This document shows, one piece after another, positions 8,004 to 52,816 of a stretch of DNA of 64,000 nt. The stretch comes from Myxococcota bacterium (lineage in GTDB: Bacteria; Myxococcota_A; SURF-8): NCBI GenBank assembly GCA_963674735.2, contig CAXXQS010000002.1, positions 608,001 to 672,000 of the forward strand. Reading direction: 5' to 3'. The stretch's first letter is position 1; every line of letters begins with the position of its first letter. The position numbers were made by a program, and so were the translations under genes. Below the pieces are notes generated by a model. It searched no databases, had not been told where the DNA came from, and saw nothing but the letters and a program-made list of their open reading frames with translations.

Positions 8004-11000
8004 ATGGCGATGACAACGCGGGGGTCCCTGCTGGCAGGGCTATTGGGATTGATGGTAGTGGTGTTTGCAATCGGATGCGATTCGGGCTCGGCCGGGACGT
8101 CGGTGGATGGCGACCTGCCCGGAGATCCGGCCTGCGACTGTCCCTACGGCTGCGACGATCTGGGCGAATGTCTACCCGGACCCTGCGAAACCAGCACCGA
8201 TTGTCCGCCGGGACAGATTTGCGACGGGGGCTATTGCCAAAACGCCGGTGAAACCGACGGCGACGAGGACACCCCGAACGACGGCGACCTGGACGGCAAG
8301 CCGAATGAAACCGACGGCGACCTGAGCGAGGCCGAAGCGGACGGCGATATCGATCTGGAATTTGAAACCGACGTTCCCCACGACGAAAACAACCCCTGGA
8401 TCGTCGTCGACCCGTTGCGCATCGATTTCGGCGCGGTACCGCTGCACAGCACCCGCGACCGCGACCTCACCATCTCGAATATCGGCGCCCAAGATCTGGT
8501 CGTGGATGAAATCTACTATTGGTACGAACCCAACGAGCCGGTACAGGAACTCAGCCTGACCCACGACGCCCTGCCCATCACCTTGGCCAGCGGCGATCAG
8601 GCCCTCGTCACACTGCTCTTCGAATCGCAGGACATCATTCCCGATGAAGACATGTTGATCATCCATTCCAACGACCCCTCCGAACCCAACGTGGGTATCC
8701 CGGTGACAACCGACATCAAAGCCAGTGCCGCCATCGAAGTGAATCCGTTGGAGGTGGCCTTCGGCACCGTGCGCCTAGGTCATTACGAAGAGACCGTCAC
8801 CCTGCGCAACCTGGGCGGGCTGGCGGTTCTGATCGCGCAGCTTGAGCTCGACAGCCAAAGCGACGAAATCACCGTCGACGGCATTCCGGCCGGGATCGGC
8901 GCGACCACACCTTACAGTCTGGACCCCGGCGCCAACCTGGCCCTCACCGTCAACTACGACCCGGTCGTCAACGACGGGGTGGAAGATACGGGCACCCTGC
9001 ACATCGAAACCAACGATGTCGAGAACCCGCGCTTCACCGTTCCCATCAGCGGTACGCCGTGTCAGCCGGAAATCGACGTTCTGCCCACCATCCTCGATTA
9101 TTCGAGCGTGAACCTGGGTGACAGCGCCACCGAATGCTTTACCCTGGAAAACAGCGGCTGCGGACTTCTGGCCGTTTCCAGCATCGCCATCACCGAAGAT
9201 GCCGGAGGCGCTTACGTCTGGCAGGCCGCCCCCACCGCCCCCGAAGACATCCCGGCGGGTGAATCGCGCGAATACTGCGTTACCTTCACGCCCGACAGCC
9301 CCGACACCGGCAACGGTATGGTGACCATCGAAAGCGATGACGACGACGAACCCACGGTGGAGATTCCGCTCTCCAGCGAAGTGGTGCCGCCCAATATTTC
9401 CTGCACCCCGGACGAGCTGCTTTACGGCCAGGTGGCCATCGGCAGTCCGCAGACCTTGAGCGTCACCTGCACCGCCACCACCAGCGCCCCCATCGAAATC
9501 GGCGACCTGGTCATCGACCCGCCGCCGGGCGTCTTCGCCATCACCAATACGCCCGCCACTACGCTGAATCTGGGCGACGAGAGCATCATCGAGATCACCT
9601 ACGACCCGACAACCGAGACGGCCGACGCGGCCACCCTCACCATTCCATCGAACGACCCGGATAACGGCAGCATCGATGTCCCGCTATCGGGTTCGGGCTA
9701 CATTCCCAACGACTGCCCGGTGGCGTTGATCAGCATCGCCGAGCCGCCGGAAGACCAGATCGAGCAATATGTCACCGTCACTCTGAACGGCGCGGGTTCG
9801 AGCGACCCCGATCCGGGCGATTCCATCGCCGAATACATTTGGACGGTCCTCTCGCGCCCTCCGGGCTCCACCAGTCCCCTCACCAGTCAGGGCGACGTGC
9901 GTCCGACCCTCTACATGGACGTGGCGGGCGACTACGTCGTCGAGCTGCAAGTGCGCGATACCCTGGGACTGCTGAGCTGCGTGGCCGACCAGATCACCAT
10001 CACCGCCGCCCAGCCTTCACCCGACATCCATTGCGAGCCGCTGGCCCTCAATTACGGCGAAGTGGCCATCGGCAGCACCTTTGCCAAAACGCTTTCCTGC
10101 CGCAACGACGGCTTCGGTCCGCTGGCCATCAGCCAATATGAGATGGTCTCGCCCGCCGCCGGGGTGTTCAGCATCACCAACACGCCCAAAACGACGTTGG
10201 CCTATTCGGAATCCACCCTGATTCAGATCACTTATGCCCCGCAACAAGTGGGCGAAGATCTGGGCACGCTGCGCATTCATTCCGACGATCCGGACGAGCC
10301 GCTGGTGGAAGTGTCCCTGCGCGGCGGCACCTACGCGCCCAACACCTGCCCGGTAGCCGACTTCGTCCTGCTGGAGCCGCCCATCGATGAAATCTTCGTG
10401 GGCGACCGCGTCAAACTGGACGCCTCGGGCTCCTACGATCCCGACGCAGGCGATTCCATCTATCAGTACATCTGGTCTTTCGATTCCAAACCGGCCGCCT
10501 CGCAAACCGAGATCCGCCCCTTCGGCTACCCGAAACCCAGTTTCTACGTCGATCAGCCGGGCACCTACGTCGTCAAACTGATCGTTACCGATACCTTCTA
10601 CGAGCCGAGCTGCCAGGCGGCCACGCTGACCTTGGTGGCGACCCTGCCGCCTGCCGACATCGTATGCTCGCCCATGGTCGTCAACTACGGCGTCCTGGCC
10701 ATCGGCGACACCCAGACGCAAACCGTCGTCTGCGAGAACGTGGGTCGCGGCCTGCTGCATATCAGCTCCTACCTGGTGGACACGCCCACGGCGGGCCTGT
10801 TCAGCGTCGTCAACACGCCGGTCATGGCGGTGCCCCCCGGCGACTTCACCACCTTCGAAGTCCGCTATGCTCCCACGACGCCCGACAGCTCGAACGGGGC
10901 GCTCACGATCCAATCCAACGATCCGGCCGAGCCCGAAGTGGCCATCGACCTGATCGGCAACAGCTACGATCCCAATAACTGTCCTACGGCCGTCATCGGT

Positions 11001-50866: not shown

Positions 50867-52816
50867 CTACTCCAATCCTGCGATGGCGGCCAAGGCGGAG
50901 ATGTCCCACAAGCGCAAGGTATTGTCGTCGCTGCCGGAAGCCAGAAGCTGCCCATCGGGTGAGAAGGCCACGGTGTTCACGCCGTCGCTGTGCCCCGATA
51001 AAAACGCGATCGGTGTGCCATCGACCGCCTTCCACAGGCCGATCAGGCCGTTCGATCCGGCGGTCGCCACAAAACGGCTATCGACCGACACCGCCACATC
51101 GTGCACATTTCCGGGATGTTTTTCCGGCGAGTAAAGCAAGGTGGATTCGGGCAGCTGCCAGCCATACAGCTTGTGATCGCGCGCGGCGGCCACCAGGCGC
51201 GAGGCGTCGGGCGCATAGGCCACCCCGTATACGAAATCCCCGATATCGTTTTTAAGACCGAGGTGAGAATCGTCGTCGAGATCGTAAAAATGAATGCCGC
51301 TCTTTTCACAGATACCGATGATGTTGGTATCCGTACACCCGCCCGCAGCAAAGGCATCCCCGGCCGGATTCAACGCCAGGGCGCGTACGTAACGCTGATC
51401 CAGACGCGTGTAGGTGTGCAACGGATCGGTCCCGCTGGCGGCATTCCAGCGTTTGACACTGAAATCGTCACCGCCGGTCAAAAGCTGGCTGCCGTCAACG
51501 GTGTAGAGGATGGCGCGCACCGCGGTGGTGTGAGCCGAAAAGCTGCGGACATTCTGCTGCGTCAGGACATCCCAAATCGAAACCTCGCCGCCGTTGTGGG
51601 CAACGGCAATGTGTGTCGCGGTGGTGGAAAAAGCCAGGTCGTGCACGTCGCCTTTAAAGGGGGTGATGACCCGCGCATCTCCGTTGTTCAACGACAACAA
51701 ACGCAGGCTGTCGTCGGCGGAACCGCTCGCCAAAAGCGGCAGCGTGGGCGAAAACGCCACGGTCAGGACGGCATCGGAATGCTCGGGATAAGTGGCCACT
51801 GCCCCGCCAAAATGGCAGCCACCATCGAGGCAATAACCCCATTGGTCGGGTTTCCCCAGATCGCAGGCGCTGCCGTTCTCGCCTGCACAGGAAATTTCGC
51901 AGATCCCGGAGCGGCAAACCCCGGCAAAGGAATTACATGCAGTATCGTCGGCTTGCGGCGTCCAGGCGTCCCAAGCGTCGTCGGGGCTGCAGGTCGAGCA
52001 TTCGTTAAAAGGTTGATTATCCGTCGTCGCATAGCAGACCGCGTCGATCAGGCAAAAGCCGTCCTGGATCTCGTGTTGGCAGCTATGGTCCTCGGCACAG
52101 ACATCGTCGGTACAATCGAAATTATCCTGATCCGACAAGCAACTACGGCCCGCTTCGCGCCATTCGCCACCGGCACAACAGGGACCGCCCGTGCATTCGG
52201 GAACCCATTCTTCCTCGGCTTCCACATTTTCGGTCCCCTCGCCGTCGAGGTCGCCGTCGGCCGAGCCGTCCAGGTCGCCATCCGCCTCTTCTTCACACAC
52301 GCCCTGCCGCAACTCGTAACCGTCCCGGCAGGTTTCCACCGCGCAGACGCCGTCGTCGCAAATACCGGAGAGGGCCTGGGGATCGTCGGGCGCACAGGAA
52401 CCGGTGAGGAAAAAGCAGCCGTTGCAGCAGGGGCCCGCCTGCGGTCCGCACTCGCAGGCCGTGTCATCCGCGTCGCCGTCGGCCTCACTCTCGCCATCGC
52501 CGTCCGTCGCAAGATCGCCGTCGGGTTGACCGTCACCATCCGCACCGAAGGGCACGCAGCGACCCTCCTCGCAAACCTCGCCGTTTTCGCCGCAGTCTTC
52601 CACCACCTGCCAAGAGCCGTCGGCACAGATCACCGCCACCTCGGCCTCGCAACCGATCTCGTCATCGCGGCAGAGCGACCCTGCCTCGTAATCGCCATCG
52701 ACATCGGGGGTGACATCGCCGTCGTCGGACCCGGTCGGGTCGTCTCCGCCGCAGGCGGTCAACAGCAACACCCACAAACTCAACCCCACCCAAACACAGG
52801 GAAACGCCCGTCGCAT
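50867..52816 (-). CDS. Lipoprotein with DGD linkers, Cys-rich modules and C-terminal WD40 propeller
   Basis: GAGG RBS, lipobox LTAC; about 7 WD40 repeats ('GHSDGVNTVAFSPDGQLLASGSDDNTLRLWD'). Confidence 0.87.
   Translation of the reverse strand: MRRAFPCVWVGLSLWVLLLTACGGDDPTGSDDGDVTPDVDGDYEAGSLCRDDEIGCEAEVAVICADGSWQVVEDCGENGEVCEEGRCVPFGADGDGQPDGDLATDGDGESEADGDADDTACECGPQAGPCCNGCFFLTGSCAPDDPQALSGICDDGVCAVETCRDGYELRQGVCEEEADGDLDGSADGDLDGEGTENVEAEEEWVPECTGGPCCAGGEWREAGRSCLSDQDNFDCTDDVCAEDHSCQHEIQDGFCLIDAVCYATTDNQPFNECSTCSPDDAWDAWTPQADDTACNSFAGVCRSGICEISCAGENGSACDLGKPDQWGYCLDGGCHFGGAVATYPEHSDAVLTVAFSPTLPLLASGSADDSLRLLSLNNGDARVITPFKGDVHDLAFSTTATHIAVAHNGGEVSIWDVLTQQNVRSFSAHTTAVRAILYTVDGSQLLTGGDDFSVKRWNAASGTDPLHTYTRLDQRYVRALALNPAGDAFAAGGCTDTNIIGICEKSGIHFYDLDDDSHLGLKNDIGDFVYGVAYAPDASRLVAAARDHKLYGWQLPESTLLYSPEKHPGNVHDVAVSVDSRFVATAGSNGLIGLWKAVDGTPIAFLSGHSDGVNTVAFSPDGQLLASGSDDNTLRLWDISALAAIAGLE

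Follow-up and report, generated by a model that had tools for sequence, protein, structure and literature searches.

Does a DGD tripeptide that stands about ten residues behind the lipobox cysteine address certain bacterial lipoproteins to the cell surface, or does it simply begin a linker? The question is raised by a 64,000-nucleotide stretch of DNA (hereafter the window) from a Myxococcota bacterium (GenBank assembly GCA_963674735.2, contig CAXXQS010000002.1, forward-strand positions 608,001 to 672,000). In a preliminary description of this window, DGD had been noticed at +10 or +11 of five lipoproteins with otherwise unrelated N-termini, and a position-fixed export address read by a translocon was proposed. 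It is largely unclear how diderm bacteria beyond the Bacteroidota, spirochaetes, and Neisseria choose the lipoproteins that cross the outer membrane. Here, we find that the positional pattern extends through the genome, and with moderate confidence we read the DGD at +10/+11 as the opening unit of an acidic tether that one class of lipoproteins carries in stereotyped, lineage-specific form, with the acidic cap as a whole marking this class.

Position of the first DGD across the genome

The search covered the 5.26-Mb assembly in three contigs (G000), whose open reading frames (ORFs) were taken from stop to stop and scored by a codon log-odds model trained on long ORFs. Lipoproteins were predicted with our own signal-peptide and lipobox patterns rather than with SignalP or LipoP, and the class sizes are approximate. 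Offsets count the lipobox Cys as +1, and a carrier is a lipoprotein whose first DGD falls at +9 to +13. With a PROSITE-like lipobox pattern, 533 lipoproteins were predicted genome-wide, 272 of which have a DGD within 60 residues; the first DGD lies at +9, +10, +11, +12, and +13 in 21, 54, 44, 31, and 25 cases, respectively (175 in total), and at +2 to +8 in 14. A relaxed lipobox gave 576 lipoproteins, with the first DGD at +2 to +8 in 14, at +9 to +13 in 193, at +14 to +60 in 89, and no DGD in 280. The mode is +10, and carriers make up about one third of the predicted lipoproteins (193/576). The genome-wide histogram is therefore not flat but sharply peaked at +9 to +13, in keeping with the preliminary description, though its notion of a fixed position has to be reworded. 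While the peak at +10/+11 stands, the offset is spread over +9 to +14, and what is fixed is a sharp lower limit of +9, with +10/+11 as the commonest offsets, and not one invariant position.

When the residues at +2 to +60 were shuffled within each protein (n = 200), on average 13.3 first DGDs, and never more than 24, fell at +9 to +13, as against the 175 observed, and so shuffled linkers do not account for the peak. Over the first 60 positions of lipoproteins, DGD reaches 33 per 1000 residues, compared with 0.55 in other coding-like ORFs and an expectation of 0.38 from composition. In a test that dispenses with the lipoprotein predictor, the start of each DGD run was measured from the nearest upstream Cys in all coding-like ORFs. 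Where this Cys follows a hydrophobic 12-mer, there were 27, 69, 53, 42, and 24 cases at +9 to +13 and 16 across +2 to +8, whereas for a Cys not so preceded (Cys-rich domains) the distribution was broad with a maximum at +6/+7. Chance and composition are ruled out by the shuffles together with these Cys-to-DGD distances.

Alternatively, the peak might be an artefact or a matter of common descent, produced by a few paralogue families with a shared N-terminal cassette, by wrong start codons, or by composition. Our predictor is home-made, and one carrier cluster has 30 related members at a loose threshold, both of which lend this idea some support. However, grouping the 193 carriers by sequence yields 134 clusters, of which 116 have a single member, and with one representative per cluster the histogram is unchanged, which rules out paralogue expansion. 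In addition, the shuffles fail to reproduce the peak, the predictor-free test shows the same one, and the same distribution is found in 400-kb samples from two other genera of the same family, namely G004 (first DGD at +9 to +13 in 17 of 49 predicted lipoproteins, at +2 to +8 in 1) and G003 (6 of 25, with 3 at +2 to +8). An origin of this kind is largely refuted, and we consider it highly improbable. Because the shuffles, the predictor-free test, and the clustering all agree, the positional pattern is real, general, and specific to the lipobox Cys.

This same specificity also speaks for a different explanation, according to which the composite C-(G/S)(G/S/D)-acidic patch-x-DGD (at about +10) would be a position-specific sorting signal, read by a dedicated machine and leading across the outer membrane. 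Candidates for this reader would be a surface-lipoprotein flippase, a type II secretion system, and a Bam/Lpt-like exporter, with the later repeats being expansions of the signal's DGD. Its strongest point, and the best evidence for a specially placed first DGD, comes from the 56 lipoproteins with a single DGD in their first 100 residues, since the offset is kept at +9 to +13 in 29 of them (+2 to +8 in 3, +14 to +20 in 6, and +21 to +98 in 18). Likewise, where there are two DGDs, the first is found at +9 to +13 in 29 of 45 lipoproteins. Against a read signal are the spread from +9 to +14 and the 89 lipoproteins that start DGD later, at +14 to +60. We treat such a signal as possible but somewhat doubtful, and return to it below wherever the evidence touches it.

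Cap, DGD onset, and tether

Four of the five lipoproteins flagged in the window are carriers, with payloads assigned by Pfam and translation. The Ig-like/PKD lipoprotein gene (8004..11762, + strand) has its signal peptide at 8004-8075, the lipobox Cys codon at 8076-8078, and the first DGD at +11 (8106-8114; N-terminus C-DSGSAGTSV-DGD). In the gene for a lipoprotein with 12 Kazal repeats (28889..32464, - strand), the Cys codon is at 32390-32392 and the first DGD at +11 (32354-32362; C-ADAGIGGLV-DGD), and a DNA repeat scan located 15-bp tandem repeats that encode its DGD-rich linker at 31963-32244. A lipoprotein with Dickkopf-like Cys-rich repeats (38790..41003, + strand) has the Cys codon at 38859-38861 and the first DGD at +10 (38886-38894; C-SGTSTTTV-DGD), with its (PDGDD)n linker encoded by a 15-bp tandem array at 38936-39140, of which 38936-39065 holds 8.7 copies at 97%. 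Lastly, a lipoprotein with a Cys-rich module and a WD40 propeller (50867..52816, - strand) has the Cys codon at 52751-52753 and the first DGD at +11 (52715-52723; C-GGDDPTGSD-DGD). In three of the four proteins, DGD recurs many times further downstream. All five N-terminal strings of the preliminary description are identical in our translations, and Pfam bears out that the payloads differ (Ig/PKD, Kazal, Dickkopf-like Cys repeats, WD40, and GH9). Yet the placement of DGD at +10/+11 holds for only four of the five, as the GH9 lipoprotein (12886..15873, + strand; C-LPIDEEQAG-DGG) shows DGG at +11 (12979-12987), does not reach a DGD until +79, within an internal linker, and is not a member of the motif class.

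Alignment of the carriers on the Cys reveals two modules, a small/acidic cap and then the DGD onset. At +2, Gly (41%) and Ser (30%) prevail and Asp is found in only 6%, followed by Gly 34%, Ser 30%, and Asp 21% at +3, Asp 37% and Ser 25% at +4, Asp 33% and Ser 21% at +5, Asp 29% at +6, and Asp 26%, Thr 17%, and Ser 16% at +7 (among the 193 carriers, 49 have Asp, 34 Thr, 31 Ser, 23 Glu, 12 Asn, and 11 Ala at this position). Gly is rare at +6 to +9 (3-7%), and the residue preceding DGD is Pro in 25%, Ser in 17%, Val in 13%, and Thr in 12%. Lys and Arg at +2 to +8 average 0.07 per carrier versus 0.56 per non-carrier. In a scan of all tripeptides, the first GGD, GSD, SDD, and SDS are concentrated at +2 to +6, and the first DGD is at +9 to +13 in 193 of 296 first occurrences. 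No distinct signal peptide or lipobox was found for the carriers, positions -6 to -1 and signal-peptide length being alike, and this indistinguishability of the two classes counts against a read signal. An NCBIfam search gave no model covering the N-terminal region.

Downstream of its onset, DGD is present in a mean of 4.7 copies in the first 80 residues of carriers, and 522 of the 1110 DGD-to-DGD spacings listed are of five residues, which corresponds to a P-D-G-D-x pentapeptide. DGD is therefore not a lone tag: it builds up an acidic linker, peculiar to the lineage and made mostly of PDGDx pentapeptides. The many DGDs per protein are a further point against a read signal. In the window, the DGD runs are 15-bp and 18-bp tandem DNA repeats with an 84-97% match, and being encoded in this way, they can therefore grow and shrink by slippage. 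As gauged by a hydrophobicity proxy, the tether has a median length of 44 residues (interquartile range 31-68), as against 13 in lipoproteins without DGD, and exceeds 22 residues in 165 of 193 carriers. Its composition is 31% Asp, 15% Gly, 9.5% Glu, 8.6% Ser, and 7.7% Pro.

This extremely Asp/Gly-rich composition and regular 5-residue period might instead point to a structural or chemical role without sorting, in which DGD binds divalent cations or shapes the chain, for instance by bridging to lipopolysaccharide phosphates or by resisting the cell's own proteases, and the offset is the distance that clears the membrane surface. Asp/Gly-rich repeats can bind calcium. Nevertheless, no calcium-binding family was detected: TSP_3 (Pfam) had no match at E ≤ 0.001 in the five window proteins and is not among the 25 most frequent families of 73 carriers, though low-complexity filtering may hide weak matches. 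Nor does a structural role explain the association with payload class any better than a tether does, and we think it unlikely.

Payloads of carriers and non-carriers

Pfam families were tallied in 40 lipoprotein-dense 20-kb regions, selected greedily and covering 211 of the 576 lipoproteins, from the first 650 residues of 73 carriers and the first 500 residues of 99 non-carriers. Commonest in the carriers are Ig-like (HYDIN/VesB-like, Cep192_D4, and ASH), FGE-sulfatase, and GH5 cellulase families; Lcl_C, FG-GAP, Laminin_G_3, Exo_endo_phos, and PKD are also common, and there are single cases of penicillin amidase, NAGidase, GH88, peptidases C25, C11, and S15, and GDPD. For the non-carriers, TPR, Peptidase_M23, PPIase/SurA-like, LPP20, and CcmH-type TPR are the commonest. 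Carriers are also richer in Cys and longer, with a median of 529 versus 310 residues.

The best BamD/YfiO match is a lipoprotein that starts C-ASFVELKG and is without a DGD tether. The same is true of four OmpA-domain lipoproteins, which we read as Pal-like and one of which starts C-GDDG but has no DGD, and none of the nine OEP proteins is a lipoprotein. In fact, the BamD, OmpA-domain, TPR, M23, and PPIase/SurA-like lipoproteins all do without the tether, and the equal frequency in periplasm-facing lipoproteins that would have refuted the preliminary description was not seen. Within the window, translation confirms that its two contrast lipoproteins are devoid of an acidic tether or DGD. These are a TPR lipoprotein (16082..17101, + strand) and the one earlier placed at 57688 (56762..57703, - strand; C-GKSSYEQGKE...), for which there is no Pfam family at E ≤ 0.001. 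Judged by family, the carriers are predicted hydrolases and adhesin-like proteins, and the putatively periplasmic housekeeping lipoproteins are without a DGD tether. A simple sequence rule of this kind splits a lipoproteome of about 576 proteins into an enzyme/adhesin-bearing group and a putatively periplasmic housekeeping group, and the positional part of the rule is sharp and holds across genera. Both the difference in payloads and the absence of the motif from housekeeping lipoproteins would also suit a sorting signal.

Relatives and linker dialects

The nearest named relatives for an rpoB fragment are metagenome-assembled genomes (MAGs) labelled Deltaproteobacteria, Myxococcales, Anaeromyxobacter, Polyangiales, and Bradymonadales, with 63-70% identity. 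Our comparison set included ten genomes of the same order, and the same predictor was run on 400-kb samples of relatives. Outside the family, first DGDs at +9 to +13 become few, with 4 of 40 predicted lipoproteins in G008 (same order; 16 start later), 1 of 38 in G006 (same order; a repeated false positive is included in the 38), and 0 of 54 in G020 (same phylum), and none of the three has any at +2 to +8. In G008, the dominant tripeptide is DDD, with DDDDD runs, and the linkers of G020 are Asp/Ala/Thr-rich. The false positive in G006 involves at least 7 identical ORF copies (G006:C1:1000001-1400000, L212-L231) with the product C-VVGIYRLKRLFEPIAPGRF after a hydrophobic stretch, and the repeated ORF is probably a mobile element.

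A profile was made from 35 N-termini of this genome, and since at most 150 candidates were scored per genome, its counts are lower bounds. At E ≤ 1e-5, it matched at least 55 in G000, at least 42 in G003, and at least 29 in G004, as well as at least 7 and at least 5 in two fragmented genomes of the same family, and at least 9, at least 2, at least 2, and 0 in other families of the order. Among the candidates scored in 11 same-phylum genomes, there was no match better than 9.4e-5.

As for orthologue pairs of G000 and G004 with a tether, both partners have the first DGD at +9 to +13 in 6 of 11, and the intervening residues differ (e.g., C-GGDDTSGV-DGD in G000 versus C-GGGSSTAP-DGD in G004); in ten other pairs, DGD is absent in both partners. 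This conservation between genera favours a read signal. Where DGD stands in G000, however, same-phylum orthologues show C-ASDENSTPAADISDAS... or PDGGD repeats. The orthologues of DGD carriers in sister lineages have poly-Asp or Asp/Ala/Gly-rich linkers instead, and an exchange for other acidic repeats is difficult to reconcile with a signal that is read.

Three further lipoproteins drew our attention in these comparisons. A lipoprotein of G006, from another family of the order (L247, G006:C4:20108-21286), is 96% identical in protein sequence to one in G000 (C1:1984794-1985972), and a penicillin-amidase-like lipoprotein of G004 (L233, G004:C1:1177659-1180235) is 87% identical to its G000 counterpart (C1:922065-924641). 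These identities far exceed the usual 30-60% and could stem from recent transfer or a binning problem. The third, g0_49 of G000, and its G020 homologue have N-termini that are His/Asp-rich and not of the DGD type (C-DQHTGEQDDHADHEHED... and C-DHHDHGDHTHGDGQQDHGDH...), which suggests metal-binding tethers.

DGD linkers beyond the lipoprotein N-terminus

DGD pairs are present in 117 coding-like ORFs outside the predicted lipoprotein set. Many of these are lipoproteins that were missed by the pattern, and in the remaining ones the DGD repeat is situated between Cys-rich or other domains or close to the C-terminus, with some pairs just ahead of MYXO-CTERM-like tails. An example from the window is a large secreted non-lipoprotein with an ordinary signal peptide (21189..25166, - strand; from translation), in which an internal (EPDGD)5 linker (15-bp tandem repeats at 21486-21572) joins Cys-rich modules and a MYXO-CTERM-like tail (GDGGC, a hydrophobic helix, and RRRK) forms the C-terminus. 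This protein demonstrates that DGD repeats are a general linker and not lipoprotein-specific. The GH9 lipoprotein, which runs from a short non-DGD start through a Cys-rich module to a DGD linker encoded by 18-bp tandem repeats (13235-13394, + strand), shows that the linker is used internally within lipoproteins as well. As DGD is shared by non-lipoprotein linkers, the tripeptide alone cannot be a lipoprotein-specific address, and its occurrence outside lipoproteins goes against a read signal.

A strict MYXO-CTERM-like tail pattern gave 15 matches genome-wide, about 8 of them convincing, and these run from an acidic linker to a Gly/Ser run to the Cys. In the 6 tails with DGD, the last one is 15 to 50 residues ahead of the tail Cys; a fixed DGD spacing mirrored before this Cys was looked for and not found, though the sample of about 8 tails is too small. 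In these few tails, the Gly/Ser run directly before the invariant Cys (GGGGG-C and SGSGDSG-C) mirrors the C-GG/GS-acidic order of the lipoproteins. That the same linker lies beside both presumed lipid anchors, with small-residue runs flanking the Cys on either type, is a point in favour of the structural or chemical role considered above.

Lipoprotein and export genes

The genome encodes one LspA and four Lgt (PF01790) over the Pfam cut-off, as well as LolA and three secretins (gene presence only), and because of these it is taken to be that of a diderm with a predicted standard lipoprotein pathway and possible secretin-based export routes. With lipobox patterns that match and with Lgt and LspA both encoded, lipidation of the carriers is predicted. 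The Lgt paralogues are found at C1:2550190-2550924, C2:2111337-2112203, C1:1069983-1070807, and C2:1159711-1160412, and LspA (C2:2112341-2112772) adjoins one of them. The additional Lgt enzymes might act on the MYXO-CTERM Cys or on a second class of lipoproteins.

Two of the three secretin genes (C1:811375-811857 and C1:117627-118100) are located 5-8 kb from weak GspL/PilM-like matches, the only two T2SSL-like ones and both below the cut-off (C1:803506-803769 and C1:122837-123127). Such clusters may represent type II secretion or a type IV pilus and could bear on lipoprotein export. While these secretins would give a sorting signal a conceivable route, no candidate reader was found. Here, the search for Slam (PF04575) was uninformative, as it had no match, yet its control also matched in none of 14 genomes.

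Discussion

How, then, are the carriers' N-termini put together, and how might they be used? Their residues come in a set order, in which the Cys, predicted to be lipidated, is followed by two small residues (Gly/Ser), a Ser/Asp-rich and Gly-poor stretch to about +8/+9, a small or Pro/Val residue, and then DGD, which is usually repeated as P-D-G-D-x through slippage of the 15-bp DNA repeats. We propose that the resulting tether, with its median of about 44 residues, would hold hydrolases and adhesin-like domains off the membrane. The nine or so residues that follow the Cys may be held by the lipoprotein-handling machinery, which would set a lower limit for where the repeat starts. Acidic cap and tether together would separate exported (surface or extracellular) from periplasmic lipoproteins, as the Bacteroidota signal does, and the tripeptide DGD itself would not be the element that is recognised.

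We rank this tether above a read signal because DGD is in general use as a linker, because linker dialects differ between lineages, and because the offset is spread. As an address read by a translocon, the DGD of the preliminary description thus fares unevenly, with the offset being kept for single DGDs and across genera, and with the general linker, the replacement in sister lineages, and the span of +9 to +14 telling against it. A read signal nonetheless stays a substantial contender because of the single-DGD result and the cross-genus conservation.

Several observations weigh against the tether. A plain spacer leaves the offset unexplained when DGD is single (29/56) or paired (29/45), and if the repeat is disordered, a Lol-type ruler gives no evident reason to bar DGD from +2 to +8. 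In homologue look-ups, restricted to rows with a clear lipobox, one single-DGD lipoprotein has homologues in five family genomes whose DGD is at +11 to +13 with differing flanks, a retention of offset that also speaks for a read signal; homologues in other families of the order have no DGD. Moreover, the Asp runs of G008 begin immediately after the Cys. The presumed disorder of the tether draws no support from a single-sequence AlphaFold2 model of the WD40 lipoprotein, which was poor throughout (mean predicted local distance difference test score of 36.6). Lastly, the location of carriers is deduced from their payload families only, and the non-carrier class includes predictor false positives (HATPase_c, H+-PPase, and DAO).

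Were the signal real, this uncultured Myxococcota-like family might have evolved its own post-Cys code independently of the Bacteroidota, and the export route would display about one third of the lipoproteome, mostly hydrolases and adhesins, a scenario that we put forward only tentatively. If it is a sorting code, phylogenetic profiling could start from it to find the export machinery, and the surface-displayed proteins of this uncultured and probably predatory or degradative lineage could be predicted. If there is only a tether, as we favour, the feature would be a clean case in nature of a 'ruler' that sets length behind the lipid anchor and fits the ten-residue requirement of LolCDE, and would show linker dialects (DGD, poly-Asp, and Asp/Ala) turning over among related lineages via tandem-repeat slippage.

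Comparison with known systems

In the Bacteroidota, according to a published account (PMC5080379), the lipoprotein export signal (LES) takes forms such as SDDDD, SDDFE, and C-X-K-(D/E)2, and its position is critical. The carriers resemble this to some degree in having an acidic patch just after the Cys, preceded by small or polar residues (Gly/Ser at +2/+3 and Asp/Ser at +4 to +7), in being positionally constrained, and apparently in that the patch marks lipoproteins of enzyme or adhesin type and is absent from presumed periplasmic ones. Against the LES rule (a polar or basic residue and then at least two acidic ones in +2 to +6), the carrier cap fits loosely, with 33-37% Asp at +4/+5. However, the DGD itself, at +9 to +13 (about +10), is outside the +2 to +6 of the LES, and a long repeat linker follows. 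The LES is tied to surface export, whereas the present element is known from sequence alone. The phyla differ as well, the host's relatives being Myxococcota/'Deltaproteobacteria' MAGs and MYXO-CTERM-like tails being present.

For E. coli, one study (PMC11671585) has LolCDE holding the triacyl-Cys and requiring at least ten unstructured linker residues, Cys included, with no sequence specificity. Another (bioRxiv 10.1101/2021.01.05.425367) attributes disordered linkers of more than 22 residues, which matter for Lol transport, to about half of the outer-membrane lipoproteins. Common to these and the carriers is a low-complexity segment between the Cys and the globular domain, and the ten-residue requirement matches the DGD onset. 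In contrast to the lack of a specific sequence there, the carriers have a defined repeat unit with a 5-residue period, a defined onset, and a lineage dialect, and housekeeping lipoproteins such as Pal, which do have linkers in E. coli, are here without the DGD tether. The E. coli Lol-avoidance signal, Asp at +2, was considered and set aside, given its 6% share in the carriers.

Closer in phylogeny is Myxococcus xanthus, for which published work (PMC3222651) assigns +7 Ala to matrix lipoproteins and +2 Lys to inner-membrane retention, and describes how FibA was no longer exported once its Ala at +7 had been changed to Asp. Shared features are the same broad phylum, an address residue several positions from the Cys, and a separate export route. 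Yet the chemistry is opposite, as +7 is Ala in 11 and Asp in 49 of the 193 carriers. The post-Cys address codes of the Bacteroidota (PMC5080379) and M. xanthus (PMC3222651) set a precedent for a read signal.

The published MYXO-CTERM model (PMC11980579) involves a lipidated Cys, an adjacent disordered region, and type II secretion to the surface. Likeness is seen in that the tails of this same genome are preceded by acidic, sometimes DGD, linkers and by a Gly/Ser run beside the Cys. The differences are the opposite protein end, the processing by myxosortase, and a DGD-to-Cys spacing that is not fixed. In open-access papers and preprints, supplementary files aside, we found no published description of the motif. 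On these comparisons, we regard the DGD feature as a new form of the known post-Cys tether and sorting elements.

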